Assembly: GCA_036394495.1 (NCBI GenBank)
Contig: DASWEZ010000156.1
Span: 1 to 43,097 of the forward strand
Reading direction: 5' to 3'
DNA: 43,097 nt
DNA from: Burkholderiales bacterium
GTDB taxonomy: Bacteria; Pseudomonadota; Gammaproteobacteria; Burkholderiales; JACQAP01
Of this stretch, positions 1,061 through 32,737 are shown piece after piece. A model generated the notes under the pieces. It was not told the DNA's origin, made no database searches, and was given only the letters and a program-made list of their open reading frames with translations. The stretch's first letter is position 1. Every line of letters starts with the position of its first letter. Position numbers and translations under genes: made by a program.

Positions 1061-1211
1061 CCACAGAGGCACAGAGGTCACAGAGTAAAAACCAAATTCC
1101 GTGTCGTGGATCGCTCGCCACGAGCAGGCGTCCGAAGTCCCAATCTGTCCGGTCAATCTGCTCGGTCCCGGTCGTTCCTTTGCGATTCCTTCGTGCCCTC
1201 TGTGCCTCTGT
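1061..1211. repeat. Palindromic intergenic element, copy A (unit-array arms CACAGAGG / CCTCTGTG)
   Basis: Left arm 1061-1085 CCACAGAGGCACAGAGGTCACAGAG; right arm 1193-1211 GTGCCCTCTGTGCCTCTGT. Positions 1063-1077 pair perfectly (15 bp) with 1197-1211. It lies in the 214-bp spacer between the di-iron oxygenase stop (1225) and the dioxygenase start (1010). Confidence 0.8.
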
Positions 1212-1224
1212 AACGATATCAGTT

Positions 1225-1932
1225 CTAGATTTTAGGTAAAGACAATCCGAAATCCTTTTCCACCAGCTCGGTGACGCGCGCGAGGAAATCCTCGCGCATC
1301 TCGTCGTTGGTGCGGCTCTTGAGGCCCCAGCGCAGATATGTTTCGTTGTTCTTCGATTTGCTCGCGCCGAAAAATCCCGGCGTGATCGGGAAATAACGGT
1401 TGATCGCGTCCTGTACCGCGGCCCTGCCCTCCGCGGTCCGGATCAGTTCCGTGCAGAAATCCCTGCCGAACTTGGCGTGGAATTTTTCCTCGGGCATGGT
1501 GATGCGCGCCAGGTCCCGCAACGGATGAAACGAGCAATGCAGCAGGTCTTCCACTTGCAGGATCTCCGCATAGTCGGCAATGGACTTGATCACGCAGAAT
1601 TCCGGCCAGGTCTTCATTTCGAAGCTGAAGATCGTCAGCGGTTTCTTGATTTTCGGGTCCATCATTTCCACCGGCACCCCGATCTGCTCCGCCAGCCCGC
1701 GGAATCGCACATGGTGATGGTACTCCTCCATCGCCACGCGGCAGGTCAGCCATTTCGCGTAAGGCGAAGGTGCCAGCGCAATGGCGGGCTCGTCGAACAC
1801 CTGCGCGCCGTACAACTCGTTCACCGCATGGCTGATGATGATTTTCCTGACGGCAGTCTGGTATTCCTCCGGCTGTTGATCGAGTTCGGCCGCGGTTTTT
1901 ACGGCAAGGGTGGCGGTGGCGGTGGCGGTCAT
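1225..1932 (-). CDS. Ferritin-like di-iron oxygenase subunit, PaaA/PaaC (phenylacetic acid catabolic protein) family
   Basis: ORF 1225..2049 trimmed to ATG 1932 (MTATATATLAVKTAAELDQQPEEYQ...), 12 nt after the SDR stop. 235 aa, helical, with carboxylate/His motifs (NELYGAQ, AMEEYHHH, QVEDLLH) as in PaaA/PaaC/BoxB-type oxygenases. Family-level call only. Confidence 0.7.
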   Translation of the reverse strand: MTATATATLAVKTAAELDQQPEEYQTAVRKIIISHAVNELYGAQVFDEPAIALAPSPYAKWLTCRVAMEEYHHHVRFRGLAEQIGVPVEMMDPKIKKPLTIFSFEMKTWPEFCVIKSIADYAEILQVEDLLHCSFHPLRDLARITMPEEKFHAKFGRDFCTELIRTAEGRAAVQDAINRYFPITPGFFGASKSKNNETYLRWGLKSRTNDEMREDFLARVTELVEKDFGLSLPKI

Positions 1933-1943
1933 GGAGGTGCCTC

Positions 1944-2876
1944 TCAGACGATCGGTTCGGTATTGAAGAATTCCAGGTCGGTGGCAAGGTCGGTCAGTCC
2001 GGCCCCCAGTTCGGCGCCGATGGCTTGCGCAAGCGCCGCTTCGTCCCACTCGGTGCCGGCCGCCATGAGCGTGCGTGCAACCGGGCGTGGTTGGGAAAAC
2101 AACAGCAGTTCGCGCCCGCGCACCCCGAACAGCTGGCCGGTCAGCCCGTGGGCATCGGAACTCAAATAGGTCGCAAGCCTGGCGACGTAATGCGCGGGAA
2201 TCTGCAGTGCGCGCAGTTTGTAAGCGGCCTGGGCGTCGTTGGCAGGCTGGATCGAATCCGTCACCCGGGTCGCGGCGAACGGGGCAATTGCGTTACAGGT
2301 GATTTTCGAACGGGACATGTCCATTGCGACGACGCGTGTCAGCCCGACCAGCCCGGCCTTGGCGGAGGCATAGGCAGCCTGCCCGAAGTTGCCGAACAGC
2401 CCGGCGCTGGACACGATGTTGACGATGCGCCCGGGAGCGCGGCCGCTCTTCTGCTGCTCGCGCATCAGCGGCGTAGCCGCCGCCAGCAGCGCGAAAGGAG
2501 CCGTCAGATTGGTGGCGATGACCTGTTCCCAGTTTTCGCGGCTCGCCTTGAAAATGAACGAGTCCCGCAGAATCGCCGCGTTGTTGATGACGATGTCGAT
2601 CGCGCCAAACGCCTTCACGGCGCTCTGCACTGCGCGTTCCGGCGCGCCGGCCATTGCCAGGTCTTCGCAGAATGCCGCCGCGCCGGCACCGAGTTTCGCA
2701 GCGATGGATTCGGCAACAGACGGATCCGGATCGACGCCGGCAATCGAAACGCCGCTGTCGGCAATGAGGACCGAAGCGCCGCGGCGGCGCAATTCCTCGA
2801 CGATCGCCAATCCGATTCCGCGCGCGCCGCCGGTAACGATCGCCACTCTGCCCGACAACGTTGCTGCCGCGTTCAT
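1944..2876 (-). CDS. Short-chain dehydrogenase/reductase, MFE-2-like (hydroxyacyl-CoA dehydrogenase type)
   Basis: 310 aa. TGGARGIG Rossmann motif, NNAAI, catalytic region SSAGLFGNFGQAAYASAKAG. ATG 2876 overlaps the reductase stop (ATGA), implying translational coupling. Confidence 0.85.
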   Translation of the reverse strand: MNAAATLSGRVAIVTGGARGIGLAIVEELRRRGASVLIADSGVSIAGVDPDPSVAESIAAKLGAGAAAFCEDLAMAGAPERAVQSAVKAFGAIDIVINNAAILRDSFIFKASRENWEQVIATNLTAPFALLAAATPLMREQQKSGRAPGRIVNIVSSAGLFGNFGQAAYASAKAGLVGLTRVVAMDMSRSKITCNAIAPFAATRVTDSIQPANDAQAAYKLRALQIPAHYVARLATYLSSDAHGLTGQLFGVRGRELLLFSQPRPVARTLMAAGTEWDEAALAQAIGAELGAGLTDLATDLEFFNTEPIV

Positions 2877-3928: not shown

Positions 3929-3950
3929 GGTTTGAACGGCTGGCACAGGC

Positions 3951-4478
3951 ATGGCCGATGGACTACTATCGATGACAAGTATGGAAAGTAAACTGTTGGA
4001 TGTCAAACAATCGGGCGTTGCCGCGGACGGCCGCAGGGCGCGGGCCCGCAAGGCGCCGGGGCTGGGCGTATTGCCCGGACTGATCGGCTATCAGCTGCGG
4101 CTTGCGCAGCGCGCGATCTTCGCCGATTTCGCGGACACCGTCGGCGAAAGCGGCATCTCTCCCGGGCTGTTCGGCGTCCTCGTGGTCATCGGGGAGAATC
4201 CCGGACTGACCCAGCAGGCTCTGGCCAATGCGGCGCACCTGGACCGCTCCACCGTCGTTACCGTGATCGACAAGCTCGAAGACCGCGGGCTGGTGGAACG
4301 CCGTGCGGCCGACCGGCGCAGCAACGGCCTGTTCCTGGCGGACAAAGGCGCCGTGCTGCTGCGCGGGTTGAAACGCAAAGTGGCCCAGCATGAGCGCCGG
4401 GTCGTGCAGAACCTTTCTGCACGCGAGCGTGCCCAACTGGTTGCACTGCTCCAGCGCATCCTTCCGGAACGGCGCTGA
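3951..4478 (+). CDS. MarR family transcriptional regulator
   Basis: 175 aa with the winged-helix core GLTQQALANAAHLDRSTVVTVIDKLEDRGLVERRAADRRSN. Divergent from the oxygenase operon. The start could be a later ATG (3972 or 3981). Confidence 0.85.
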   Translation: MADGLLSMTSMESKLLDVKQSGVAADGRRARARKAPGLGVLPGLIGYQLRLAQRAIFADFADTVGESGISPGLFGVLVVIGENPGLTQQALANAAHLDRSTVVTVIDKLEDRGLVERRAADRRSNGLFLADKGAVLLRGLKRKVAQHERRVVQNLSARERAQLVALLQRILPERR

Positions 4479-4491
4479 CCCGGAGACCGAC

Positions 4492-5577
4492 TTGGCTCGC
4501 AAACCCGCAAACCGCAAGAAGCTGTTCCGCTCCCGCCGCAAGACACCCGGCCTGCCCCCCGGTTCGCTGGTGTACACCGGCGATGGCAAATCGCTGACCC
4601 CCCGCGTCACCATGCTCGACTACGACGAGCACAGGGTTGTCGAGAAGGAACTCGTTCGGGTGGACGACTGCATCCCGTTCAAGGATGCCCAGACGGTCAC
4701 CTGGATCAATGTCGACAGCGCCACCCAACCCGGACTGCTGGAGAACTTCGGCCGGGTCATGGGTTTCCATGCGCTGATGCTGGAAGACATCCTCAACACC
4801 GACCAGCGGCCCAAGTTCGAGGACTACGGCAACTACATTTACATCGTCGTGAAGATGCTCGACTACGACGTGAAGAAGGGCGAGATCGAGATCGAACAGT
4901 TGTCGCTCATCCTCGGACCGAACTACGTGATTACGTTCCAGGAGCGCGCGGGGGATTTTTTCGATCCGCTGCGCGAACGCATACGCAAATCCCTTGGGCG
5001 CATACGCAAGCTGGGCACCGACTATCTCGCCTACGCGATACTCGACATCATCGTGGACCACTATTTCGTGGTGCTGGAAAAGCTGGGCGATAAAATCGAG
5101 CAACTCGAGGACATCGTGATCACCAATCCCGGGCAGGACACGGTGCGCGCCGTCCACGCTATCAAGCGCGAGATGATTTTCGTGCGCAAGTCAGTGTGGC
5201 CGCTACGCGAAGTGGTAACCAACCTGCAGCGTTCGGAGTCACCGCTCGTGCGCGAATCGAACGCGGCCTACTTCCGCGACCTGCACGATCACATCATGCA
5301 GGTCACCGACAGCGTGGACACGTTCCGGGACCTCTTGAACGGGATGCTCGATTCCTATTACTCGACCATCACCACGCGGACCAACAGCGTGGTAAAGGTC
5401 CTGACACTTTTTTCCGCGATTTTCATGCCGCTGATGTTCATAACCGGCATTTTCGGCATGAACTTCCGGAATTTTCCCGAACTGGAGTGGCACTACGGCT
5501 TCCAGGGTTCGCTGATCCTGATGGTGGTGGTCACGATCATCATGGTCGCCATTTTCAAATGGAAGAAATGGCTCTAG
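4492..5577 (+). CDS. corA: Magnesium/cobalt transporter CorA
   Basis: Frame of ORF 4390..5577. It resembles Thermotoga-type CorA end to end (GLPPGSLVYTG near the N-terminus, GMN motif as GIFGMNF, two C-terminal TM helices, KWKKWL end). There is no ATG before the conserved N-terminus, and 4390-4478 overlaps marR. I therefore place the start at in-frame TTG 4492, with GGAG 6 nt upstream. Confidence 0.9.
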   Translation: MARKPANRKKLFRSRRKTPGLPPGSLVYTGDGKSLTPRVTMLDYDEHRVVEKELVRVDDCIPFKDAQTVTWINVDSATQPGLLENFGRVMGFHALMLEDILNTDQRPKFEDYGNYIYIVVKMLDYDVKKGEIEIEQLSLILGPNYVITFQERAGDFFDPLRERIRKSLGRIRKLGTDYLAYAILDIIVDHYFVVLEKLGDKIEQLEDIVITNPGQDTVRAVHAIKREMIFVRKSVWPLREVVTNLQRSESPLVRESNAAYFRDLHDHIMQVTDSVDTFRDLLNGMLDSYYSTITTRTNSVVKVLTLFSAIFMPLMFITGIFGMNFRNFPELEWHYGFQGSLILMVVVTIIMVAIFKWKKWL

Positions 5578-5862
5578 GGAAGCTCTGATCAAGTCTTGCG
5601 ACGCGCGTTGCGTCAGGTGCGGATGGATGGGAAGCGCCGCGACGAAGCCAAGGTGGGTACCTTAGCCAGGAGCGCAACAATGCAGACGCCGCACCTGACA
5701 CAACCCGATAATCGCTCGTCTGTTTAGAAGGGACCGGGGTGATTTGGGCCGATGGCTGCTTGGGCTCCTCCTTGTGTAGACCGGCTACACGGCGTCCTCG
5801 CCCTCTTGCCCCAGGCCCAAATCACCCCGGTCGCGCACGTAAGACTTGTTCAGAGCTTCCCT
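5576..5862 (+). other. Nested palindrome / candidate structured RNA in the corA 3-prime region (class unknown)
   Basis: Outer helix 5576-5600 / 5838-5862 (25 positions, 1 mismatch, 1 G-T). Inner hairpin 1: 5607-5622 / 5689-5704 (16 bp, 1 mismatch, 66-nt loop). Inner hairpin 2: 5732-5750 / 5814-5832 (19 bp perfect, 63-nt loop). It starts inside the corA TAG stop codon. No credible ORF. Confidence 0.5.
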
Positions 5863-5892
5863 GGGGCAGTAAACCGGGAGAAAGTCTGGCTG

Positions 5893-5915
5893 CCGGGCTT
5901 CGTCCCCGGTTTTTT
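5893..5915 (+). terminator. Rho-independent terminator candidate
   Basis: CCGGG (5893-5897), loop CTTCGTC, CCCGG (5905-5909), then TTTTTT (5910-5915). Short stem. It lies between corA plus its structured region and the convergent arfB. Confidence 0.5.
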
Positions 5916-5954
5916 GTCGCCGTTTCGAGGGATGCCGGTTCCGGATCTTCCCAA

Positions 5955-8410: not shown

Positions 8411-8437
8411 TCGAACTGCTGAAGTCAAAGCGTTGTG

Positions 8438-8852: not shown

Positions 8853-8870
8853 CACTCGATCGAATCCAGC

Positions 8871-8904
8871 AACGAAAAGGACGGCCGCAGCCGCCCTTTT
8901 CGTT
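8871..8904. terminator. Bidirectional terminator hairpin between convergent genes
   Basis: AACGAAAAGGACGGC (8871-8885), loop CGCA, GCCGCCCTTTTCGTT (8890-8904); 14 of 15 positions paired. The A/T runs lie inside the stem ends. Confidence 0.6.
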
Positions 8905-8918
8905 GTCCGGCAGACCAT

Positions 8919-10015: not shown

Positions 10016-11182
10016 TTAGGGAGCGCGGAGTGCATCGACGATGTTCAGGCGGGAGGCGCGCACTGCAGGCAGGAAGCCGCCGAGCAGTCCCATGAACAAG
10101 GCAAAGCCAATCGACTTGGCGACGATCGTGGGATTGAGCGTGAACGAGAACGCGAGTTCGGCGAAGGATTGCCAGTTCATCGTCGAGATCGTCAGGAACT
10201 GCATGAAGGAGGCGAGTATCAATCCGATGCTGCCGCCCACCAGCCCGAGCAGCAACGCTTCCAGGAGAAATACCGCGAGGATGCCGCTGCTGCGGAAGCC
10301 GAGCGCGCGCAAGGTGCCGATCTCCGCCGTCCGGCTTGCCACGGACGCATACATGGTGATCATCGCGCCGATGGTCGCGCCGATCGAGAAAATGACCGAC
10401 AGCGTCATTCCCAGATAACCGATGAAATTCGCCAGCACCTCGGATTGCTCCGCGTAAAACACCGATTCGCGTTTGGCTTCCACTGTCAGCCTCGGATCGG
10501 ATTCGAGGCGCTGCTTCAGGCCGTCGAAGCGTCCTGGATCGTTCAATTTCAGGATCAGCGAAGAAAACACCGGCCGGCGGAAAGCCTGCATGAGCTGCTC
10601 CACATCCCCCCATATTTCCGAATCGAAACCGCTCTTGTTCGCGTCGAAGGTGCCGACCACGGTCCAATCGCGCATGCCGAAGCGCAGTTGCTCGCCGACA
10701 CCCGCGCCGCGAAAACGCTCCGCAATGCTGCGGCCCGCGATGATCTCCGAAGAACCCGGCTGGAACATGCGGCCCTGCACGATGCGCACCTGGGGACGCA
10801 ATTCCCGGCCCTGCGCACCGAGGCCGCGAATGATCACGTTGGACGGTTTGGCGGAATCGCGTTTCTGCAGCGTGATCAGCACGACCATTTCCTTCGACAC
10901 GCGCACCCGGCCGTCCGGTCCGTATGCAATCTCCGGCTGGCTTTCCACGACTCCGGCCTGCGCACGGTCGATGCCGCTTTGCACTTCCGTTCCCGACGAA
11001 CGCCGCGTGACCACGACGTTGTCCGGGGATCCGGTGTCGACCAGCGTTTTCTTCAAGCCCTCCTGAAGCATGAGCACGGTGGCGAACACGAACACCACCA
11101 GCGCCATGCCTGCGGCAGTGAGCGCGGTCGTCATCTTGCGCGCACTCAGGTTCTTCGCTGTGTACGAAAACGGGATCACCAT
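10016..11182 (-). CDS. ABC transporter permease, FtsX/MacB type (permease 2 of operon)
   Basis: 388 aa. N-terminal TM, a large periplasmic domain, then three C-terminal TM helices with RALGFRSSGIL (FtsX-type motif). Confidence 0.85.
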   Translation of the reverse strand: MVIPFSYTAKNLSARKMTTALTAAGMALVVFVFATVLMLQEGLKKTLVDTGSPDNVVVTRRSSGTEVQSGIDRAQAGVVESQPEIAYGPDGRVRVSKEMVVLITLQKRDSAKPSNVIIRGLGAQGRELRPQVRIVQGRMFQPGSSEIIAGRSIAERFRGAGVGEQLRFGMRDWTVVGTFDANKSGFDSEIWGDVEQLMQAFRRPVFSSLILKLNDPGRFDGLKQRLESDPRLTVEAKRESVFYAEQSEVLANFIGYLGMTLSVIFSIGATIGAMITMYASVASRTAEIGTLRALGFRSSGILAVFLLEALLLGLVGGSIGLILASFMQFLTISTMNWQSFAELAFSFTLNPTIVAKSIGFALFMGLLGGFLPAVRASRLNIVDALRAP

Positions 11183-11194
11183 GATCTAGATCGA

Positions 11195-11332
11195 GCCACA
11201 GAGGTCACAGAGAAGGGCAAACTCGACAACATACCGAATAAACGCGGAAGGACATTTGCGTATTTTTTCCTCTGTGATCTGAAAGGGTACTCCAACGTGC
11301 CAGGCACGTAGGGTATCTGTGTCCTCTGTGGC
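11195..11332. repeat. Palindromic intergenic element, copy B
   Basis: Left arm 11195-11212 GCCACAGAGGTCACAGAG; right arm 11317-11332 CTGTGTCCTCTGTGGC; 16/17 paired, with a single T-T mismatch at arm position 11. An extra internal CCTCTGTGATCTG sits at 11269-11281. It fills the 154-bp spacer between the two permease genes. Confidence 0.8.
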
Positions 11333-11336
11333 CAAT

Positions 11337-12494
11337 TCATCCGATGTTACGAAGCCCATCGACGATGTGCAATCGGGCCGCGCGCACGCTTGGAAACAGT
11401 GCCGCGACCGTGCCGACCAGAAGCGCGGCCGCCAACTGCATGTATACGGTTTGGCGTGAGACGCCGAAGACGGGGAACAGCGTTCCCAGCTTGGCGGCAA
11501 ACCAGTTCGCGACCGGATACGTGGCCACGATGCCTGCGGCGGCGCCCGCCAGGGCGATTGCCATGGATTCGCCGAAGATCAGCGCCATCAGACGCGCCGG
11601 TCCGAAACCGAGCGCCTTCATGGTTGCGTACTCCGCGAGGCGCTCGCGCGCCGTCATTGCCATGGTGTTCGCCATGACCGCCATGATGATGAATATCACG
11701 AGGAAGGAAACGATCTGGATGGCCACCACGATGGCCTCGGTCATGGCGACGAACCCCAGCTGGAATGCCTTCTCGGTTTCCGTCAGCGTTTCGGCAAGCG
11801 AATTTCTGAACTTCAGATCGATGGCCGCACTGACCGGTGCCGCGCTGCTCGGTTGATCGATGCCCACGATATAAACGCCGACCGTGTTGGCGCGGCGCGG
11901 CACCGTCTTCTTCAGGGTTTCGTTCAGGTAGTCCCAATGGAAGAAGAACTGTGACGTATCGGTCTTGGCATCGGCGCCGTCGTAAATGGCCCTGACAACA
12001 AATTCCCAGGTTCCGGGAAAGATGGTTCCCCGCAGCGGCACCAGGTCACCCACCTGGAAACCATACTGCGATGCAAGCTTGCGGCCGACCACGCAGCCTT
12101 TGCGATCGAGCAGGAAAGCCTTCATGTTCTCGGGCGCTATCTGGTATTCCGGATAAAGCGCAAAGTAAGTGGCGGCATCCACGGCAAACTGCGGGAAGAA
12201 ATTCCTTTCCGATACGTAGATGCCGCCGAACCAGTTGGCATGGCTGATATGGCTCACTCCGTCGACCTGCCGGATGCGCTCGCTGTACGTGATCGGCAAG
12301 GGGAACACGAGGGAAATGGCATTGCGCGTGACCAGCCGCGTGGTGGAAGCGTTCTCGGCTCCGGCAAACCATGCCTCCACCACCGTGCGCAACAGCCCGA
12401 ACGCGACAATCGCGACGAACAGACCGAACACGGTCAGCCCGGTGCGCAGCTTGTGGCGCAGGGCATTGCGCAGGATCAGTTTCAGGAAGTACAT
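11337..12494 (-). CDS. ABC transporter permease, FtsX/MacB type (permease 1 of operon)
   Basis: 385 aa with the same architecture as 10016..11182 (MKALGFGPARL motif). Confidence 0.85.
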   Translation of the reverse strand: MYFLKLILRNALRHKLRTGLTVFGLFVAIVAFGLLRTVVEAWFAGAENASTTRLVTRNAISLVFPLPITYSERIRQVDGVSHISHANWFGGIYVSERNFFPQFAVDAATYFALYPEYQIAPENMKAFLLDRKGCVVGRKLASQYGFQVGDLVPLRGTIFPGTWEFVVRAIYDGADAKTDTSQFFFHWDYLNETLKKTVPRRANTVGVYIVGIDQPSSAAPVSAAIDLKFRNSLAETLTETEKAFQLGFVAMTEAIVVAIQIVSFLVIFIIMAVMANTMAMTARERLAEYATMKALGFGPARLMALIFGESMAIALAGAAAGIVATYPVANWFAAKLGTLFPVFGVSRQTVYMQLAAALLVGTVAALFPSVRAARLHIVDGLRNIG

Positions 12495-12543
12495 GGAATC
12501 ATCCCGGGGCTGGAATGCACGGACCGATTGTAGTGGCGGGAGA

Positions 12544-13245
12544 TCAGGCGACGGCGGGCGCTGCGGCCTCGACCAGCTCGCCTTTGTCCAGGTGCTTGAC
12601 GATGCGGGCCCGTTGCGCTGCGCGCTGATCGTGAGTCACCATCACGATGGTTTTTCCCATCTCGCGGTTCAACCGGTCCAGCATCCCGAGAATATCCCCG
12701 GCGGACACCCGGTCCAGGTCGCCGGTCGGCTCATCGGCGACGATGAGCACCGGATCGGTAATGATGGCCCGCGCGATGGCCACGCGTTGCTGCTGCCCAC
12801 CGGAAAGTTCGGAAGGATAATGCGCGGCGCGGTCCGCGAGGCTGACCATGTCCAGCGCAAGCTGCACACGCTCGCGCCGGTCGCGGCGGCCCAGCCCGGT
12901 GAGCAACAGCGGCAACTCGACGTTCTCGAATGCGGTCAGCACCGGCATCAGGTTATAAAACTGGAAAATGAAGCCGATGTTCGCCGCGCGCCAGTCGGCA
13001 AGTCCGGACTCGGAAAGCCGGGAAATGTCTTCCGCGCCGATGCGCAGTTCGCCGCTGTCGGGCTTGTCGATTCCGGCCATGAGATTGAGCAGCGTGCTTT
13101 TCCCCGATCCGGACGGACCCATCAGCGCCAGGAATTCGCCCTCCGCGATATCGAAGCTCAGGTCGTGAAGTACCGGGACTACCTGACCTCCCCGCCGATA
13201 GGATTTGAACAGATGGCGTATCTCGACGATCGGCGCGCCGGTCAT
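12544..13245 (-). CDS. ABC transporter ATP-binding protein (MacB/LolD-like)
   Basis: 233 aa. Walker A GPSGSGKST, signature LSGGQQQRVAIARA, Walker B LIVADEPTGDLD. ATG 13245 abuts the adaptor stop. Confidence 0.9.
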   Translation of the reverse strand: MTGAPIVEIRHLFKSYRRGGQVVPVLHDLSFDIAEGEFLALMGPSGSGKSTLLNLMAGIDKPDSGELRIGAEDISRLSESGLADWRAANIGFIFQFYNLMPVLTAFENVELPLLLTGLGRRDRRERVQLALDMVSLADRAAHYPSELSGGQQQRVAIARAIITDPVLIVADEPTGDLDRVSAGDILGMLDRLNREMGKTIVMVTHDQRAAQRARIVKHLDKGELVEAAAPAVA

Positions 13246-14475: not shown

Positions 14476-14835
14476 GCGTAATCACCAGTTTGATGTCGTC
14501 ATTATGGAGGAAGGCCCCGGCGTTGGACCGGGCGAAATCCGGTAAGTGCGCACAAACAGGCGCCGGGATCGGTCAACGCGAATGCGCGCGCCTGCGTCGG
14601 GACGATGATTGTTCACGGCATCAGACCCGCGACATCGCCGCCTATTTTTTGCGTAGTAACGACGCCTGGCAGGCGGCGCTCGAAAAATGCGTAAACCCAT
14701 GTCTTATCTATATTTTAATTGATCGCGCGAAGCCGGAAAATTGCAAAGGTGCTACTATCCGGAATTCATGGATCCGCCGCGATTTGGACGTGAATGGCCT
14801 CCGGTTTATAGTGCAGTCCGACATCGCTGAAAATC

Positions 14836-25343: not shown

Positions 25344-25347
25344 GCGT

Positions 25348-26196: not shown

Positions 26197-26294
26197 CTGC
26201 CTTCCGGATGGATCCAGAGACCGATTATAACGGCGCGGGCAGCTATAATCGCCCCTCCGGTCAACCTGATCTCCAAAAAATCGCGGGAGGATGC

Positions 26295-27071
26295 ATGCCC
26301 AATTTCAACGCCAACCTGTCGATGATGTTCAACGAGGTCGGCTTCCTGGAGCGCTTCGGAGCCGCGGCAAAAGCCGGTTTCCGGGGTGTCGAGTTCCTGT
26401 TCCCCTATGAATTCCCCGCCGCCCGGATCAGGGAGCAACTCGACAAGCACAAGCTGCAAATGGTGCTGTTCAACATGCCGCCCGGCGACTGGGCGGCCGG
26501 CGACCGAGGATTGGCCTGCGATCCGGCCAAGGTCGTCCCGTTCCAGGAGAACATCGGCAAGGCCATCGAATATGCAAAGGCGCTGGGTTGCAGCATGATC
26601 CACTGCATGGCGGGCCTGAAGCCACGTGGCGCAAACGAAGAAAAGATGCGCGAGACCTATATCGCCAACCTGCAGTTCGCGGGCCAGGAACTGGCGAAAC
26701 ACAACATGAAGCTGCTGATCGAAGCGATCAATACGCGCGACATCCCCGGCTTCTACCTGAACTACTCGCGCCAGGCGTTCGATATCATGCACTACGCGAA
26801 CGTGCCGAATCTCCTGTTCCAGTACGACATCTACCACATGCAGATCATGGAAGGCGACCTGGCCCCGACGGTCGAGAAGAACCTGGCGAAGATCGGCCAC
26901 ATGCAACTCGCCGACACGCCCGGCCGTCACGAGCCCGGCACCGGAGAAATCAACTATCCATTCCTGTTCGAACACTTCGACAAGATCGGCTACAAGGGCT
27001 GGATCGGCTGCGAGTACCGCCCCGCCGGCAACACCGAAGCCGGCCTCGGCTGGCTTAAACCTTATCTTTAA
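26295..27071 (+). CDS. hyi: Hydroxypyruvate isomerase
   Basis: ORF 26208..27071 trimmed to ATG 26295 (GGGAGG upstream). 258 aa, collinear with E. coli Hyi as I recall it (FNANLSMMF, GFRGVEFLFPY, DIYHMQIMEGDL, GTGEINYPFLF, GCEYRP). Confidence 0.85.
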   Translation: MPNFNANLSMMFNEVGFLERFGAAAKAGFRGVEFLFPYEFPAARIREQLDKHKLQMVLFNMPPGDWAAGDRGLACDPAKVVPFQENIGKAIEYAKALGCSMIHCMAGLKPRGANEEKMRETYIANLQFAGQELAKHNMKLLIEAINTRDIPGFYLNYSRQAFDIMHYANVPNLLFQYDIYHMQIMEGDLAPTVEKNLAKIGHMQLADTPGRHEPGTGEINYPFLFEHFDKIGYKGWIGCEYRPAGNTEAGLGWLKPYL

Positions 27072-27072
27072 G

Positions 27073-27243
27073 AATTCATTTTTGCCGCCAAGACGCCAAG
27101 AACGCCAAGGGGGTCGGAAAAGAATGATTGAAATTACGAACGGTGGTTGGTAGTAAAAATGCTGCGTATATCGACCATATTGTCACCATATTTTTTGCTT
27201 TTCTTGGCGCTCTTGGCGCCTTGGCGGCGAAATCTTCTTTAAA
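27073..27243. repeat. Palindromic intergenic element, copy C1
   Basis: Left arm 27084-27109 GCCGCCAAGACGCCAAGAACGCCAAG; right arm 27203-27228 CTTGGCGCTCTTGGCGCCTTGGCGGC; 24/26 paired. It starts 2 nt after the hyi stop. Confidence 0.85.
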
Positions 27244-27407
27244 AATTCATTTTTGCCGCCAAGACGCCAAGAGCGCCAAGGGGGTCGGAAAAGGATGATT
27301 GAAATTACGAACGGTGGTTGGTAGTAAAAATGTTGCGTGTATCGACCATATCGTCACCGTATTTTTTTGTTTTTCTTGGCGCTCTTGGCGCCTTGGCGGC
27401 GAAATCT
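27244..27407. repeat. Palindromic intergenic element, copy C2 (tandem duplicate of C1)
   Basis: Left arm 27255-27280, right arm 27375-27400; 25/26 paired. Offset from C1 is 171-172 bp, with about 8 substitutions and one 1-nt indel between the copies. Confidence 0.85.
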
Positions 27408-27430
27408 GAATTGATCCAAGGGGAGAAAAA

Positions 27431-28312
27431 ATGAACGTAGGATTTATCGGGCTGGGCATCATGGGGAAACCCATGGTCGCCAACCTCATCAAGGGTGGTC
27501 ATACGCTGTTCCTGGCGAGTCGCAGCGGCGTACCACAGGAACTGACCGCCGCGGGCGGGAAAGCGTGCGCATCGGCAAAGGAAGTCGCGCAGAAAGCCGA
27601 CATAATCATCACCATGGTGCCGGACACCCCTGACGTCGAGAAGGTGTTGTTCGGCAAGGACGGCGTCGCCGAAGGGTTGTCATCGGGCAAAATCGTCGTC
27701 GACATGAGTTCGATCTCGCCGATCGAGACCAAGGCCTTCGCCGGGCGCATCAAGAAGTCCGGCGCCGATTACGTGGATGCACCCGTCTCCGGCGGCGAAG
27801 TCGGCGCCAGGAACGCGGCACTCACCATCATGGTCGGCGCTTCCGAAGCGGCATTCGCCAAAGTGAAACCCTTGTTCGAGCTGATGGGCAAGAACATCAC
27901 GCTGGTCGGAGACGTCGGCGCCGGTCAGATATGCAAGGTTTGCAACCAGATCATCGTTGCGTTGAACATCGAAGCCGTCGGCGAAGCGCTGCTGCTTGCC
28001 TCCAAGGCCGGCGTCGATCCGGGCAAGGTGCGTACGGCCCTCATGGGGGGATTTGCCTCGTCGCGCGTGCTCGAAGTGCACGGTGAACGCATGGTCAAGC
28101 GCACTTTCGATCCCGGCTTCCGCATCGAGCTGCACCAGAAGGACCTGAACCTGGCCCTGTCCTCGGCGCGCGCGCTGAAGATGAGCCTGCCAAACACCGC
28201 GACCGCGCAGGAATTGTTCAGCGCCTGCCAGGCCCAGGGCGGCGGCAAGTGGGACCACTCCGCCATGGTCAAAGCCCTCGAAGCCCTCGCCAATCACCAG
28301 GTCGCCAAGTAA
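27431..28312 (+). CDS. glxR: 2-hydroxy-3-oxopropionate (tartronate semialdehyde) reductase
   Basis: 293 aa. GFIGLGIMG NAD motif and the 3-hydroxyisobutyrate-dehydrogenase-family core (DAPVSGG, GAGQICKVCNQ). Context is downstream of hyi. Confidence 0.85.
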   Translation: MNVGFIGLGIMGKPMVANLIKGGHTLFLASRSGVPQELTAAGGKACASAKEVAQKADIIITMVPDTPDVEKVLFGKDGVAEGLSSGKIVVDMSSISPIETKAFAGRIKKSGADYVDAPVSGGEVGARNAALTIMVGASEAAFAKVKPLFELMGKNITLVGDVGAGQICKVCNQIIVALNIEAVGEALLLASKAGVDPGKVRTALMGGFASSRVLEVHGERMVKRTFDPGFRIELHQKDLNLALSSARALKMSLPNTATAQELFSACQAQGGGKWDHSAMVKALEALANHQVAK

Positions 28313-28324
28313 AAAACTGCATTT

Positions 28325-28483
28325 GCCACAGAGGACACAGAGAACTGCAAAGACCAGAACCTACATGAACGTGAACGCCACAACTTTATCGGGTATCGAT
28401 TTTTCAGCTGCTGCGAACGGAACTTCTAACTCTCGAGCAATGATTCATATCCCGCCGTGGGTTTCCTCTGTGACCTCTGTGGC
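28325..28483. repeat. Palindromic intergenic element, copy D
   Basis: Left arm 28325-28342 GCCACAGAGGACACAGAG; right arm 28466-28483 CTCTGTGACCTCTGTGGC; 17/18 paired, with a single A-A mismatch at arm position 11. Confidence 0.8.
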
Positions 28484-28498
28484 TAAAAAGGTATTTTT

Positions 28499-29761
28499 AT
28501 GAATCGGGATCCGCGCGCATTGCTGCGCGCGATGTTCGACGCGGCGATCGCCGCTGCGCTGCCGGACAAGACCTTGCCTGCTTATCTGCCCAAGCCCCCG
28601 AAAGGCCGCACGCTGGTCATCGGTTGCGGCAAGGCCGCGGGAAGCATGGCAAAGGCGGTCGAGGATCACTGGCCCGGCGAACTCTCCGGCATGGTGGTAA
28701 CACGCTACGGCTATAACGTGCCGACCAAGAGAATCGAGGTCGTCGAAGCTGCGCACCCGGTGCCCGACGAGGCCGGGCGCAAAGCGGCGGAGCGCATGCT
28801 GAAAATGGTGCACGGATTGTCCGCCGAGGATCTGGTGCTCTTCCTGGTATCCGGCGGCGGTTCCGCACTGTTGTCGCTGCCGGCGCCAGGACTGACGCTC
28901 GCGGACAAACAGGCGATCAACAAAGCTCTGTTGAGAAGCGGTGCGAACATCACCGAAATGAACTGCGTGCGCAAACATCTCTCGGCCGTAAAAGGCGGGC
29001 GGCTGGCCGCCGCCTGCGCGCCGGCGAAGGTGGTTACGCTCGCGATTTCCGACATTCCCGGCGACGATCCCGCCGTGATCGCTTCCGGCCCGACGGTCGC
29101 CGATGCGACCACGTTCGCCGATGCGGTCGCGATCCTGGAGAAATACGGCATTGCCGAACCGAAGGCCGTCGTCGATCACTTGCGCGCCGCGAAAGAGGAA
29201 ACGCCGAAACCCGGCGATCCGCGGCTCGCGAAAACCGAATTGCACATGGTGGCGGCACCGCAGATTTCGCTCGAAGCCGCCGCGGCTATCGCGCGCGCGT
29301 CCGGCGTCACGCCGGTCATCCTCAGCGACGCAATCGAGGGGGAAGCACGCGAAGTCGCGATAGTGCACGCCGGCATCGCCCGCCAGGTCAAGCGCCACAG
29401 CCAACCCGCCGGGATGCCTTGCGTGCTGCTTTCCGGCGGGGAAACTACGGTTACGGTCCGTGGCAAGGGGCGCGGCGGCCGCAACGCCGAATTTCTGCTG
29501 GCGCTGGCCGTTGCCCTCGCCGGGGAGTCGGGTATTCATGCACTCGCCGGCGATACCGACGGCGTCGACGGCACCGAGGACAACGCCGGCGCGCTAATAA
29601 CGCCCGATTCGCTCACGCGCGCCGCTGCGTGCAATCTGGACGCCAAGAAGATGCTCGCCGATAATGACGGTTATAGTTTCTTCTCCGGCCTCGGCGATCT
29701 GGTCGTTACCGGCCCTACGCTCACCAACGTCAACGATTTCCGCGCGGTTCTGATCACCTGA
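28499..29761 (+). CDS. Glycerate 2-kinase (MOFRL / TtuD-type, often annotated hydroxypyruvate reductase)
   Basis: 420 aa. GCGKAAGSMA, LVSGGGSALL, SGGETTVTVRGKGRGGRN, DTDGVDG motifs of the DUF4147/MOFRL glycerate kinase family. Confidence 0.85.
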   Translation: MNRDPRALLRAMFDAAIAAALPDKTLPAYLPKPPKGRTLVIGCGKAAGSMAKAVEDHWPGELSGMVVTRYGYNVPTKRIEVVEAAHPVPDEAGRKAAERMLKMVHGLSAEDLVLFLVSGGGSALLSLPAPGLTLADKQAINKALLRSGANITEMNCVRKHLSAVKGGRLAAACAPAKVVTLAISDIPGDDPAVIASGPTVADATTFADAVAILEKYGIAEPKAVVDHLRAAKEETPKPGDPRLAKTELHMVAAPQISLEAAAAIARASGVTPVILSDAIEGEAREVAIVHAGIARQVKRHSQPAGMPCVLLSGGETTVTVRGKGRGGRNAEFLLALAVALAGESGIHALAGDTDGVDGTEDNAGALITPDSLTRAAACNLDAKKMLADNDGYSFFSGLGDLVVTGPTLTNVNDFRAVLIT

Positions 29762-29778
29762 CCGTTACCTGTCAAATC

Positions 29779-31278
29779 ATGGGAATGCCCGAACTGCTGT
29801 CGTCGGAAACCCTGCTGCCCGAGATAGCCCATGCGGACCTCGTCGCGCAGTTGACGGCCGCGCTGCCGCCGGCGTCGCTGCTTCATCAGCGCGAGGACCT
29901 GAAGCCCTTCGAATGCGATGGCATGACCGCCTATCAGCGTGTGCCGCTGTTGGTGGCGTTACCGGAAAATGAAGACCAGGTCCGCGCGGTGCTGCGCATC
30001 TGCCACAAGGGCCGCGTGCCGGTCGTATTCCGCGGCGCCGGAACGGGACTTTCCGGAGGCGCCCTGCCGTATGCACAAGGCCTGCTGCTGGTGATGGCGA
30101 AGATGAAGCAGATCCTGCACATTGATCCGGTCGCGCGCATGGCGCGCGTGCAGCCGGGTGTGCGCAACGCGGCTATCTCGGAAGCGACCGCACCCCATGG
30201 CCTCTACTACGCGCCCGACCCGTCCAGCCAAATCGCCTGTTCGATCGGCGGCAACGTCGCCGAAAATTCCGGCGGCGTGCATTGCCTGAAGTACGGCCTG
30301 ACGGTCCACAACATCCAGAAGCTGCGCTTCGTCACCATCGAAGGTGAATTGCTCGATATCGGCTCCGAAGGGCTGGATGCGCCGGGCTACGACCTGATGG
30401 CGTTGATCACCGGTTCCGAGGGCATGCTCGGCGTAGTGACTGAAATTACGGTCAAGCTGTTGCCCAAACCGGAAAAAGCCCAGGTCGTGCTCGCGGCTTT
30501 CGACGACATCGTAAAGGCGGGCCAGGCGGTGGCGGATGTGATCGGGGCGGGCATCATTCCGGCCGGACTGGAGATGATGGACAAGAAGGCCACCGCGGCC
30601 GTCGAACAGTTCGTGCACGCCGGCTACCCGCTGGATGCCGCGGCAATCCTGCTGTGCGAATCCGACGGCACCGCAGAGGAAGTCGCCGACGAAATCGCGC
30701 GCGTCAAGGAAGTCATGAAGAAGGCCGGCGCCACCGAGATCCGTACTTCACGCGACGAAACCGAGCGGCTCAAATTCTGGGCCGGACGCAAGGCTGCCTT
30801 CCCCGCGGTCGGGCGCATCATGCCGGATTACTACTGCATGGACGGCACCATTCCGAAGAAGCATCTGCCCTACGTGCTCAAGCGCATCGACGAACTGTCG
30901 GCAAAATTCAATCTGCAATGCGCCAACGTGTTCCATGCCGGCGACGGTAATCTGCATCCGTTGATCATGTTCGATGCCAACGAGGGCGACCAGAATGAAC
31001 GGGCGGAGGCTTATGGCGCGGCGATCCTGGAACTCTGCGTCGAGGTCGGCGGCACCATCACGGGCGAGCACGGCGTCGGCATCGAAAAAATAAATCAGAT
31101 GTGTGTGCAGTTCAATACCAACGAGCTGAAAACCTTCCATGCAGTGAAAAAAGTGTTCGACGAATACGGCCTGCTGAATCCCGGCAAGGCCGTGCCGACG
31201 CTGCAACGCTGCGCCGAAGGCGGCAAGATGCACGTGCACCGCGGGCAGGAGAAATTTCCCGAGCTGCCGCGTTTTTAG
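29779..31278 (+). CDS. glcD: Glycolate oxidase FAD-binding subunit GlcD
   Basis: 499 aa. FAD-binding PCMH domain (RGAGTGLSGGALP); C-terminal ITGEHGVGIEK...LNPGK. Followed by glcE and glcF. Confidence 0.9.
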   Translation: MGMPELLSSETLLPEIAHADLVAQLTAALPPASLLHQREDLKPFECDGMTAYQRVPLLVALPENEDQVRAVLRICHKGRVPVVFRGAGTGLSGGALPYAQGLLLVMAKMKQILHIDPVARMARVQPGVRNAAISEATAPHGLYYAPDPSSQIACSIGGNVAENSGGVHCLKYGLTVHNIQKLRFVTIEGELLDIGSEGLDAPGYDLMALITGSEGMLGVVTEITVKLLPKPEKAQVVLAAFDDIVKAGQAVADVIGAGIIPAGLEMMDKKATAAVEQFVHAGYPLDAAAILLCESDGTAEEVADEIARVKEVMKKAGATEIRTSRDETERLKFWAGRKAAFPAVGRIMPDYYCMDGTIPKKHLPYVLKRIDELSAKFNLQCANVFHAGDGNLHPLIMFDANEGDQNERAEAYGAAILELCVEVGGTITGEHGVGIEKINQMCVQFNTNELKTFHAVKKVFDEYGLLNPGKAVPTLQRCAEGGKMHVHRGQEKFPELPRF

Positions 31279-31289
31279 TGCAATACCCT

Positions 31290-31485
31290 GAACCACGGAG
31301 GACACGGAGGACACGGAGGAAAAACAAAACAAGGAAAAGAAAATTTGAGTTTGGAACATGGCCTGTTTGTAAACCTGTACCTCCAATTTTCGCCGCCACG
31401 GATCATCAAGCAATGAAAGGCTTTTAACCCCGGCATTTCTATTGTACTTGCCTTTCCTCCGTGTCCTCCGTGTCCTCCGTGGTTC
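31290..31485. repeat. Palindromic intergenic element, copy E (perfect 33-bp arms)
   Basis: 31290-31322 GAACCACGGAGGACACGGAGGACACGGAGGAAA is the exact reverse complement of 31453-31485. 130-bp A/T-rich core. Confidence 0.9.
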
Positions 31486-31496
31486 ATTCTTTCCTG

Positions 31497-32549
31497 ATGC
31501 AGCAAGTCATAGAACAGTTTTCCGAAACGATCCGCAAGGCGGCCGCCGAGCAGGTGCAGCTGCGCATTCGCGGTAGCGGCAGCAAGGATTTCTACGGCCT
31601 GGTGCTGATGGGCGACGTGCTCGACACGCGATCCCTGACCGGCATCGTCGACTATGAGCCCACCGAACTGGTGATCACTGCACGCGCGGGCACGCCTTTG
31701 CGCGAAATCGACAAGGCACTGGCAGGCGGCGGCCAGATGCTGGCCTTCGAACCGCCCCACTTCGGCGCCGGGGCGACGCTCGGCGGCTGCATCGCCACGG
31801 GTTTTTCCGGACCGCGACGCGCAACTGCAGGCTCGGCACGGGATTTCGTGCTGGGCGTGCGGATCGTGAACGGCCTGGGAGAAGACCTGCGGTTCGGCGG
31901 GCAGGTCATGAAAAACGTCGCGGGCTACGACTTGTCGCGACTGCTGACCGGATCTTTCGGCACACTGGGACTCATCACCGAAGCATCGCTGAAAGTGCTG
32001 CCCGTGCCGGCGGAAGAACGTACGCTGCGTTTTGCTCTGGACGAGGCTGCGGCGATCGAGTCCATGAACAAATGGGCGGCCAGGCCAATGGCGCTATCCG
32101 CCACCTGCCATGTCGATGGCGCCCTGTACGTGCGATTGTCGGGTGCGGCTGCCGCAGTTGCGGCCTCACAAAAGAAACTCGGCGGGGATGTCGTCCAGGA
32201 TGGCGCTGCGTTCTGGCAGTCGATCAGGGAGCAGACGCATGAACTGTTGGCAGGCGCGCCCGCTCTTTGGCGTTTCTCGATTAAATCAACCACCGCGCCG
32301 CTCGGTCTGGGCAAGCAGATGATGGAATGGAACGGCAGCCTGCGCTGGATTGCCGCAGACCTCGATCCGTCGGCGGCATTCGAGACCGCGCACAAGGCCG
32401 GCGGACACGCTACCCTGTTCCGGGGTGGCAACAAGCGCCACGGCATCCAGCAATTCTCGTCGGGGCTGCTCGCCGTCCACAAGAAACTCAAGCGTGCGCT
32501 CGATCCCCACGGCATTCTCGGGCCCGGGCGCATCCATGCTGATTTCTAG
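31497..32549 (+). CDS. glcE: Glycolate oxidase subunit GlcE
   Basis: Frame of ORF 31461..32549, trimmed to the first ATG (31497, MQQVIEQFSETIRKAAAE...). The first 12 codons of the GTG-started ORF are encoded by the arm of element E. Collinear with E. coli GlcE (DYEPTELVITARAGTPL, RFGGQVMKNVAGYDLSRL, GGHATLFRGG). Confidence 0.85.
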   Translation: MQQVIEQFSETIRKAAAEQVQLRIRGSGSKDFYGLVLMGDVLDTRSLTGIVDYEPTELVITARAGTPLREIDKALAGGGQMLAFEPPHFGAGATLGGCIATGFSGPRRATAGSARDFVLGVRIVNGLGEDLRFGGQVMKNVAGYDLSRLLTGSFGTLGLITEASLKVLPVPAEERTLRFALDEAAAIESMNKWAARPMALSATCHVDGALYVRLSGAAAAVAASQKKLGGDVVQDGAAFWQSIREQTHELLAGAPALWRFSIKSTTAPLGLGKQMMEWNGSLRWIAADLDPSAAFETAHKAGGHATLFRGGNKRHGIQQFSSGLLAVHKKLKRALDPHGILGPGRIHADF

Positions 32550-32561
32550 ATCTAATTCTTC

Positions 32562-32737
32562 ACCGCAAAGGCGCAAAGACGCAAAGGGAACGCAAAGAAA
32601 ATCGGTGCCGAAGGAATGAACAAATCTCGCCAGCCCCAGATCGCACATAATTGCCCAAATGCATCGTCAAGTTTGCAATTCTCACATTTATGGTTGTTTT
32701 CCTTTGCGTTCCCTTTGCGCCTTTGCGCCTCTGCGGT
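32562..32737. repeat. Palindromic intergenic element, copy F
   Basis: Left arm 32562-32601 ACCGCAAAGGCGCAAAGACGCAAAGGGAACGCAAAGAAAA. Right arm 32697-32737 TTTTCCTTTGCGTTCCCTTTGCGCCTTTGCGCCTCTGCGGT. About 38 pairs, 2 mismatches, 1 bulge. Confidence 0.85.

Follow-up and report, generated by a model that had tools for sequence, protein, structure and literature searches.

What are the hairpins that stand between the genes of a Burkholderiales bacterium, and how did they come to lie at the junctions of its operons? The question is raised by contig DASWEZ010000156.1 (assembly GCA_036394495.1), of which positions 1 to 43,097 of the forward strand were analysed; this whole stretch is called the window, or W where genomes are compared. 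It carries seven hairpins, designated A, B, C1, C2, D, E and F, each having arms built of a short word repeated in tandem. In our estimate there is about an even chance (a probability of roughly 0.5) that the copies in the window belong, as members devoid of cargo, to a family of hairpin cassettes which is mobile or replaceable, is spread across many phyla and is akin to the intervening sequences (IVS) of 23S rRNA.

Seven hairpins with tandem-word arms

Direct reading confirmed all seven hairpins, which an earlier note on this DNA, made from the letters alone, had placed between co-directional genes, and an inverted-repeat scan of the window recovered every one of them among the longest inverted repeats. 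Each copy is composed of a purine-rich left arm of 2-4 tandem units of 8-9 nt, an AT-richer core and a reverse-complement right arm, with loops of 93-130 nt according to the scan and a G+C content of 44-56%, against 61% in the window. The arm word follows the pattern C-R-C-N-R-A-G-R that the earlier note had proposed: CRCNRAGR(N)CRCNRAG found 22 matches (13 + 9) against about 0.17 (0.09 + 0.08) expected from dinucleotide shuffles, and no match in the 43-kb window lies outside the seven elements, so that the window has seven copies and no eighth. The predicted stems measure 17-40 bp, and the RNA folds of either strand reach z = -2.2 to -13 relative to shuffles. The outer ends of the arms read TTCACC, GAACC or TTTGCC. 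As the words (CACAGAGG, CACGGAGG, CGCAAAGG and CGCCAAGA) are devoid of GGG tracts, G-quadruplex formation is not possible. Since the flanking genes are co-directional in 7/7 cases, all the copies are placed within transcription units.

The cores had been described as lacking mutual similarity and any meaningful open reading frame (ORF), and this is what we found: no core resembles another among the seven, similarity in about 2.4 Mb of fetched loci occurs only at orthologous sites, and the ORFs are spurious and at most 56 aa long. No similarity to the small protein family GxxExxY was found in the cores by tblastn and six-frame peptides, a profile search of core translations not having been made; a decayed coding signal is unlikely to survive in them, because cores at such divergence have lost most alignable similarity. 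An Rfam scan of the window returned nothing at gathering score and no rRNA match, and relaxed thresholds gave only sub-threshold models of plant and animal microRNA precursors, which reflect hairpin shape alone and were discarded.

Five of the copies lie in one plus-strand operon (26208-34028), which by Pfam reads hyi - glxR - glycerate 2-kinase - glcD - glcE - glcF; four of its five junctions are occupied (by C1+C2, D, E and F), and the glxK|glcD junction, of 17 nt, is empty. The hyi-glxR spacer holds a tandem duplication, of which C1 (27080-27232; arms 27080-27109 and 27203-27232, 90% of 30 nt; core 93 nt) is the first member, its arms consisting of TTTTGCCG followed by CCAAGACG, CCAAGAACG and CCAAG plus the complement; C2 (27251-27404; arms 27251-27280 and 27375-27404, 93% of 30 nt; core 94 nt) is ~95% identical to it. 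Copy D (28322-28486) occupies the glxR-glycerate kinase spacer, with arms TTTGCCACAGAGGACACAGAG (28325-28342) and CTCTGTGACCTCTGTGGCTAA (28466-28483) that pair at 17/18 around a core of 123 nt. Copy E (31289-31486) stands in the glcD-glcE spacer and its arms (31289-31322 and 31453-31486; core 130 nt), which read TGAACC, three units of ACGGAGGAC and GGAAA, are perfect complements (34/34). Copy F (32559-32740), in the glcE-glcF spacer, has arms of TTCACC, GCAAAGG, CGCAAAGA, CGCAAAGGGAA and CGCAAAGAAAA with a mirror-image right arm (32559-32601 and 32698-32740, 39/43; core 96 nt).

The remaining two copies lie among minus-strand genes. Copy A (1055-1211) separates a PaaA-like gene (1225-2049) from a cupin gene whose start at 1010 is preceded by AAGGAGG; its left arm (1055-1088) is made of GATTCACC followed by CACAGAGG CACAGAGG T CACAGAG, the arms 1063-1088 and 1186-1211 match at 85% of 26 nt (18/19 in the best stretch), and the core spans ~97-111 nt. 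A plus-strand ORF at 282-1088 that runs into this left arm was dismissed as spurious, the minus-strand cupin gene being there instead. Copy B (11195-11332) lies between two FtsX/MacB-type permease genes (10016-11182 and 11337-12494), with arms GCCACAGAGGTCACAGA (11195-11211) and TCTGTGTCCTCTGTGGC (11316-11332) that pair at 16/17 around a core of 104 nt. The core of copy B (11296-11320) holds AACGTGCCAGGCACGTAGGGTATC, and a reduced hairpin at the E site of an orthologous locus (L132, ~255-285) holds GACGTGCTGCGCACGTAGGGTATC; the two may represent one inner module common to unrelated loci, and are too short to be significant by BLAST.

Covariation, insertion and turnover at orthologous junctions

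Proteins of uncultured Betaproteobacteria and Burkholderiales match the glycerate kinase of the window at 86-93% identity, and the window is matched by JGI and ENA metagenome contigs. Strain-level variants (L001-L004), 99.9-100% identical to the window, were uninformative on recent change. The whole operon was compared between W and four fetched orthologous operons (L125-L128), and a word-array hairpin was found in all four spacers of every one of them (20/20), with the word and the core varying between genomes. At glcD|glcE, W carries CACGGAGGA three times, L125 and L126 carry CACAGAGG-type words, and L127 and L128 carry four units of CGCAAAGG with the outer end CTCAAC. At glxR|glxK, L125 reads CGCAGAGGA-CGCGGAGGA-CGCAGAGGA, the middle variant being mirrored exactly in the right arm, and L128 has the unrelated word CGTGACNNT. 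Cores of different genomes are non-homologous, with the exception of F in W and L126; an apparent inversion of the C core between W and L127 (z = 6.1) comes from a weak alignment of ~60% identity and is not relied on. In L125 (ENA contig, 11266-15476), glcD, glcE and glcF are called in several fragments, apparently through frameshifts that are perhaps long-read assembly errors, and the spacers are readable. The hyi-glxR spacer of L126 (GCA_936414735.1, 7741-8900) contains a frameshifted IS110-family transposase gene (PF01548, E = 7e-21) inside the right arm, which splits ...CTTTGCGCCT from the terminal unit CTCTGCGGTGA. IS110 relatives target repetitive extragenic palindromic (REP) sequences, and the hairpin may be a preferred IS110 target.

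The earlier note had observed that the variant is the same in both arms of a copy, which holds for each single unit, and the covariation is real by a count over 21 word-registered arm pairs from the window and orthologous loci. Arm cells were paired in 93.3% of cases against 72.3% in shuffles, double-sided changes numbered 93 against 35.5, and the covariation score was 0.649 against 0.258, values that 0 of 500 shuffles reached. The accompanying claim, that the target of selection is the helix and not the words, is too strong: positions 1, 3, 6 and 7 (C, C, A and G), half of the eight, are invariant in the 21 arm pairs, a few words recur across phyla, and the E arms of W and a further locus, L131, are identical in sequence. 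The arms are complementary, but the words are not free.

Nor does the covariation prove selection on a helix at the RNA level. In 29 glc-operon hairpins (782 arm positions, orthologues included), arm mismatches on the sense strand comprise 19 of G.U type, 21 of A.C type and 20 of transversion type. The sense fold is the more stable in A, C1 and C2 and the antisense fold in D, E and F, with B equal and the two strands equal on average. Because the sense strand has no wobble bias, selection for an mRNA helix is not demonstrated, which is absence of evidence and not disproof. Such strand symmetry would be given by a constraint on both strands, as in a DNA foldback or cruciform, or by templated correction from arm to arm. 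Templated correction alone is insufficient because the W and L131 arms are identical, and purifying selection or a recent common origin is also needed. The stems are plausible RNase III substrates, by analogy with ribosomal intervening sequences and Correia elements.

That the hairpins are insertions is indicated by relatives in which the junctions abut. A metagenome scan with GlcE yielded 80 loci, the distant ones at 52-64% identity, and ~33 of 41 scorable distant loci have a glcD|glcE spacer of about -4 to 68 nt. The glcE stop codon meets the glcF start in distant relatives, as in L132 ('TTCTGATGAAAACC', an empty F site). The search for empty sites in orthologous operons that the earlier note had recommended was thus answered by abutting glcD|glcE and glcE|glcF junctions in most distant relatives, which we take as the ancestral state. 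Filled junctions are sporadic among the distant glcE loci and carry other word classes, namely GAACGGT (L137, L153), (GGTTCAA)x10 (L153), GATCAGN (L155) and CAGGATNN (L175). Several sites are decayed: the F site of L131 is a collapsed remnant, 'TTCACC|TCTGCGGTGAA', in which the two termini are joined, and the E site of L129 has kept the left array and its right arm has decayed. In L132, a short hairpin without arrays stands at the E site, with the same right end as window E. Homologues of F are found in L126 and L129.

The distribution of the E element conflicts with the host gene tree. GlcE of L129, L126 and L127 is 84-86% identical to that of the window and these loci carry other E-site types, whereas GlcE of L131 is 81% identical and its locus shares the window E element. 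The element type is therefore incongruent with the host gene tree, as E is common to W and L131 and not to the closer relatives. Between the two, the E arms are identical at 68/68 positions and the core at 79%, against 47% identity at fourfold sites of the adjacent glcE, and no recombination tract was obvious around the E element of W and L131. Either a strong constraint acts on the shared element as a whole or the element arose after its flanks had diverged; the conservation and the incongruence taken together favour replacement or lateral exchange. The cassettes persist at a site yet turn over, by swaps of whole-element type, loss of an arm, collapse to the termini, tandem duplication, and drift of the core with the arms kept. 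No consistent direct repeat that could be a target-site duplication abuts the window arms. A CTAGAT-like motif, which overlaps stop and start codons, flanks the F element of L129 on either side and occurs close to A, B and F as a putative duplication.

Word arrays and enclosed genes beyond this lineage

The arm words are not confined to this lineage. A scan for three CACAGAGG units, with one genome per species, found at least 120 loci, and the matches listed are spread over more than 15 phyla, among them Alpha-, Beta-, Gamma- and Deltaproteobacteria, Myxococcota, Chloroflexota, Acidobacteriota, Planctomycetota, Verrucomicrobiota, Bacteroidota, Cyanobacteria, Gemmatimonadota, Nitrospinota, Spirochaetes and one Methanocellaceae metagenome-assembled genome (MAG). 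Isolates among them are Sorangium, Microcoleus and Oscillochloris, and CACAGAGG arrays are common on IMG/VR contigs as well. Among the matches listed, 69 of 118 arrays have a complementary partner within 300 nt downstream in purine-first order and 2 have the opposite order, which is indicative of a fixed polarity of the element. The loops of these paired arrays have a median of 45 nt and a range of 4-213 nt, of which the window cores, at ~100-130 nt, occupy the long end. A scan for hairpins, unbiased and covering 1.33 Mb of the fetched loci, gave 92 hairpins with periodic arms and recurring words (CACAGAGG, CGCAAAGG, CGCCAAGA, GGATGAA, GAATGAA, AGTGCGTK, CGCTCAT, CAATTGA and others).

Arrays also occur in other arrangements. 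On nine phage-like IMG/VR contigs (L266, L244, L250, L269, L304, L215, L308, L254 and L320) one word recurs in successive spacers, and single genes are bracketed by inverted arrays; the words include CRCAGAGAA, GGATTTT, GGTTATT, GAATGAA and TGACTAT. Long-range arm pairs 740-1000 nt apart in phages were rejected as cassettes, being neighbouring elements around ordinary phage genes. Long solo arrays devoid of a clean complementary partner (L153 2350-2470; L340 560-800 and 1170-1440), such as (GGTTCAA)x10, ~30 units of ACGTRAC and ~35 units of CACAGYT, show that arrays exist outside hairpins.

The fuller members of this architecture enclose genes. In a Phycisphaerales locus (L060), an ORF of 128 aa, with a score of 2e-44 on TIGR04256, 'GxxExxY protein', is enclosed in the loop of a CACAGAGG hairpin; elsewhere a GxxExxY gene follows 2-3 tandem hairpins (L068), and a truncated GxxExxY remnant lies in a hairpin loop of Prevotella (L047). 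Altogether seven independent GxxExxY genes are found in or adjoining hairpins with CRCRRAGG words, five of them full-length in the loop, with loop cases at L060, L329-331, L332-336 and L337, and their genomic surroundings have no relation to one another. As a reverse test, three GxxExxY homologues were picked without view of their flanks and then looked up. Aldehyde dehydrogenase genes stand on both sides of P0145, whose arms are GGATTCACCACAGAGGCACAGAGGTCACAGAG (31/32). P0165, which comes from the isolate Kallotenue papyrolyticum (L332), lies between SNF2 helicase and MmeI-type methyltransferase genes with arms ACCACAAAGACACAAAGGACACGAAG (25/26), and P0236 (L337, Deltaproteobacteria MAG GCA_003647275.1, 1089-1687) between cas2 and cas4 with arms GATTCACCACAGAGACACAGAG (19/22). 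Defence operons may be frequent hosts of GxxExxY cassettes, or the gene may be mistaken for cas4 in annotation, which has occurred once (PMC8934634).

The earlier note had mentioned that word-array arms flank genes of four-helix-bundle proteins in other bacteria, and this lead was borne out in two of three blind look-ups; it holds for GxxExxY genes too. The query was a written consensus (3e-49 on TIGR02436). A Syntrophobacterales locus (L338, 715-1225) has a four-helix-bundle gene between two branched-chain amino-acid ATP-binding cassette (ABC) ATPase genes, within perfect (AGCAGTN)x4 arms, and a Capnocytophaga locus (L342, GCA_044623835.1, 760-1210) has one between sdhA and sdhB, within (GATTAGN)x4 arms whose mirror image is degenerate. 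Both of these host operons are core operons of high conservation. The cargo and the host genes have one orientation in 5/5 operon cases (L329, L332, L337, L338 and L342), and every cargo case with called neighbours lies inside an operon. Most GxxExxY and four-helix-bundle proteins in the databases are on contigs of 0.6-2 kb, as expected if flanking repeats break assemblies on both sides. GxxExxY relatives were looked for in viral contigs and none was confirmed.

The members with cargo resemble two of the window copies down to their ends: the arrangement …TTCACC-ACAGAGG…CCTCTGT-GGTGAA… is shared by copies A (GATTCACCACAGAGG) and F (TTCACCGCAAAGG) with L329 (GGATTCACCACAGAGG), L337 and L060, and copies B, C, D and E have variant outer ends. 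Arm words contain Shine-Dalgarno-like GGAGG, AGAGG or AAGG, with anti-Shine-Dalgarno-like CCUCC in the opposite arm, and in L329 (1190-1203) the last left-arm unit, CACAGAGGGG, is followed after 5 nt by the ATG of GxxExxY. The ribosome-binding site of the cargo may therefore be provided by the purine-first polarity and hidden by the stem. As for the protein, the GxxExxY family has an invariant D...ExK motif; a sequence search of the PDB gave no match, and a confident structural model (predicted local distance difference test score, pLDDT, of 92) has weak best fold matches, to Cas4, lambda-exonuclease/RecB-type nuclease domains and tRNA-splicing endonucleases. On this model, GxxExxY (TIGR04256/PF13366) would be a minimal PD-(D/E)XK nuclease fold, and the protein is nuclease-like. 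The family PDDEXK_3 was described as being of unknown function, with multiple transfers (Steczkiewicz et al., 2012). A full-text literature search did not find the array sequences, and in the papers listed by it GxxExxY is mentioned in passing, without treatment of its biology.

Origin and meaning of the hairpins

Cyanobacterial short tandemly repeated repetitive (STRR) heptamers are related arrays, and the nearest published description that we found is of GGGAATC heptamer arrays in Xanthomonas (Rehm et al., 2015, PMC4692102). There, 89-93% of the arrays are intergenic, mostly between co-directional ORFs, 70-75 convergent array pairs per genome are able to form stem-loops, the same sites are occupied in two species with extensive variation, and the arrays are transcribed and have no known function; inverted GGGGA(C/T)T heptamer pairs in Nostoc are noted too (PMC4692102). 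Tandem units of 5-11 nt, intergenic convergent stem-loop pairs, conserved sites and variable length are thus common to both. In contrast, neither cargo nor a multi-phylum vocabulary, operon-junction insertion or arm covariation was reported for the Xanthomonas arrays, which Rehm et al. read as G-quadruplex motifs, one word in one genus (PMC4692102), whereas the CRCNRAGR words of the window, of 8-9 nt, cannot form G-quadruplexes.

The IVS of 23S rRNA are located in helix 25 or 45, form a long stem from inverted ends with a small PF05635 ORF in the loop, and lie inside highly transcribed RNA from whose precursor they are excised; ORF-less IVS exist, and IVS are regarded as selfish and removed by RNase III. 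The IVS of Leptospira and Coxiella carry an S23p/four-helix-bundle ORF (PMC4990558). Here PF05635 genes are found in word-array hairpins inside operons, whereas the window copies are ORF-less and belong to the spacers of mRNA, not to rRNA; the IVS were compared by description only. To our knowledge, tandem-word arms have not been described for IVS.

Correia elements of Neisseria (Correia repeat enclosed elements, CREE, or Neisseria miniature insertion sequences, NEMIS) are likewise small, intergenic, inverted-repeat and co-transcribed, and their RNA hairpins are RNase III substrates. They differ in having a conserved consensus of 100-150 bp, terminal repeats of 26 bp, a TA duplication and a range of one genus, whereas here only the arms are shared, no duplication is shown and the host is a Burkholderiales-like bacterium of soil. 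Palindromes tagged GTAG/CGTC, as REP sequences and bacterial interspersed mosaic elements (BIMEs) with REP-associated tyrosine transposases (RAYTs; together, REPtrons), are treated in another source (PMC3733652). They share with our elements short extragenic palindromes in transcribed spacers of co-directional or convergent genes, variable copies, a cognate gene between inverted copies, and targeting by insertion sequences, as by the IS110-family element in the L126 arm. REPs, however, are imperfect palindromes of 20-40 nt with a conserved tetranucleotide tag, tiny loops and a Y1 HUH transposase, whereas the arms here are tandem arrays, the loops reach hundreds of bases and GxxExxY or four-helix-bundle genes are enclosed.

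Host benefit is the serious rival to a family of cassettes. The hairpins could be operon punctuation selected by the host, that is, functional RNA structures evolving in place which set the stability or translation of cistrons, with long intercistronic stems that are processed by RNase III or act as exonuclease barriers and with compensatory changes driven by selection on the helix. The occupancy of all four spacers in five whole-operon genomes, the position of all copies inside transcription units between co-directional genes, and the conservation of the E element, core included, far above that of synonymous sites speak for it. So do the phage contigs with arrays in successive spacers, which recall the intergenic RNase III sites of T7; stems of 30-40 bp meet the length need of RNase III, and phage T7 has RNase III sites between its genes. 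We nevertheless judge punctuation unlikely, as mismatches have no G.U excess (19 against 21 of A.C type), the antisense fold is the more stable for D, E and F, most of the distant relatives run the same operon with abutting genes, the types of element do not agree with the host tree and several of the sites are decayed or collapsed; moreover, the recurrent words, outer ends and polarity across phyla and the enclosed cargo are left unexplained. Purely mutational growth, the weaker rival, would make the hairpins neither mobile nor functional, with slippage expanding the units and quasipalindrome correction keeping the arms complementary. Such correction by intramolecular template switching is known from the E. 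coli mutagenesis literature, and this selection-free copying of arms fits the exactly mirrored unit variant, the symmetric mismatch spectrum, the variable unit number in tandem arms and the tandem duplication of whole hairpins (C1/C2; L068). Unit number and length differ among close relatives, as they do for the Xanthomonas arrays (PMC4692102). Correction alone would leave the arms to neutral drift, yet those of W and L131 agree at 68/68 positions against 47% at fourfold sites; a mutational mechanism predicts neither one vocabulary, a TTCACC outer end and a 69-versus-2 polarity across phyla, nor enclosed cargo genes, nor an element shared by more distant and not by closer genomes, and we consider it quite unlikely.

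Two further explanations carry little weight. The earlier note had called the elements MITE-like, after the miniature transposable elements with inverted repeats that are called MITEs, and the label suits small intergenic inverted-repeat insertions, several of them with CACAGAGG arms and with a CTAGAT-like motif near several copies and on both sides of L129 F. The shared core, the transposase-type terminal repeat and the proven duplication that the label also implies were not borne out: cores are unique to each site, four arm words occur within 43 kb and the copies therefore have no one terminal repeat in common, the arms are not bordered by a consistent direct repeat, and no related transposase was found, the only one seen being the IS110 inserted into the L126 element; the genes that such arms enclose are GxxExxY or four-helix-bundle genes, not transposase genes. 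Classical MITEs, as deletion derivatives of insertion sequences with a DDE transposase that would recognise the inverted ends and duplicate a target site, are thus largely refuted and very improbable. Least credible is that the hairpins are intrinsic terminators, attenuators or binding arrays of a host regulator, although they are stable, stand just downstream of stop codons and repeat their words at about one helical turn. No T-run follows the stems, promoter-like and terminator-like sites in or adjoining the elements are not above chance (one weak terminator-like match lies inside an arm), words differ between genomes at the same site, unlike the sites of one regulator, and Rfam offers no family at gathering score.

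A cargo-less membership in the hairpin-cassette family, which was delineated in this analysis and is not a curated one, remains the explanation that we prefer. All seven window copies have purine-first inverted word arrays at a co-directional operon junction, and by ORF calls, six-frame peptides and tblastn none has a recognisable cargo gene or remnant in its loop. A cassette in this sense consists of two tandem arrays of 7-9-nt words in inverted orientation, of which the purine-rich one is 5' and the outer end is often TTCACC...GGTGAA, with a loop of a few bases to ~600 nt that in fuller members encloses one small gene co-oriented with the host operon, either GxxExxY (TIGR04256/PF13366) or four-helix-bundle (TIGR02436/PF05635, '23S rRNA intervening-sequence protein'). 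Cassettes enter junctions between co-directional genes and then persist with turnover, and they would spread through a trans-acting function, for which the GxxExxY nuclease is the obvious candidate, or by homologous recombination through the flanking genes. It is mainly in the DNA that arm complementarity would be kept, through purifying selection for a foldback or cruciform and/or through templated correction with unit slippage. Co-transcribed elements would put double-stranded RNA stems of 17-40 bp into polycistronic mRNA, and cleavage by RNase III, as in IVS, would make the insertions tolerable and uncouple the flanking cistrons.

Several points weigh against this preferred explanation. We infer the link from the window copies to the cargo-bearing cassettes only from arm words, spacing, outer ends, polarity and niche; tblastn found no GxxExxY in the window, and the window has no four-helix-bundle gene. 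Neither an event of transposition or homing nor a target-site duplication or a donor copy was identified, the window cores match nothing outside orthologous sites, unlike copies of classical mobile elements, and the occupancy of all four spacers in five genomes may equally mean benefit to the host. Among the cargo cases, the GxxExxY gene of an archaeal MAG (L056) is not enclosed by a complementary pair, the four-helix-bundle gene of L340 is flanked by long arrays of two different, non-complementary heptamers, and the GxxExxY look-ups are all 61-77% identical to the protein first found beside CACAGAGG arrays and hence not phylogenetically independent. The sample of 60 arm mismatches includes orthologous, non-independent elements, and RNase III cleavage, transcription and nuclease activity in the cassettes are predictions by analogy.

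The window has other structured spacers too. An intergenic stretch of 300 nt (5571-5867) contains three nested inverted repeats devoid of tandem words (5571-5600/5838-5867, 87% of 30 nt; 5732-5750/5814-5832, 19/19; 5604-5622/5689-5707, 89%); it matches no Rfam family and is of another kind than the word-array hairpins. Short GC-rich perfect hairpins with loops of 3-4 nt at gene ends (8870-8905 and 34803-34831) look like ordinary terminators, unrelated to the word-array family.

For annotation, the elements create spurious ORFs, extend real ORFs into their arms and probably break assemblies: public gene calls include a 56-aa 'gene' across C1/C2 (window 27128-27298; L001 692-862; L002 94-264), which is an artefact, and the start of the L332 GxxExxY gene is called inside the left arm, another artefact of the element. 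They also offer operon biology natural experiments, cistrons of tight coupling having been split by 150-360 nt of structured RNA. A broader proposition, which is tentative, is that word-array hairpins form one prokaryote-wide class of self-propagating cassettes, with GxxExxY or the four-helix-bundle protein not associated with diversity-generating retroelements (non-DGR) acting on the arm foldback as a mobility or maintenance factor and with transcribed junctions as targets. If true, insertion would be directed to operon spacers, to CRISPR-cas and defence operons and to 23S rRNA helices and would be harmless after removal of the stem by RNase III, IVS, the Xanthomonas and cyanobacterial heptamers and the window elements would be one phenomenon, and two of the largest orphan small-protein families would gain a function. 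Arrays in inverted pairs are a known, unexplained kind of repeat, and the link to cargo is the new, testable part. GxxExxY and the non-DGR four-helix-bundle proteins, both with no assigned function, are multi-copy families of great abundance and scattered horizontal distribution; one DNA architecture for the two families gives a testable hypothesis on their function, on the origin of IVS and on the over-representation of 7-9-nt repeats.

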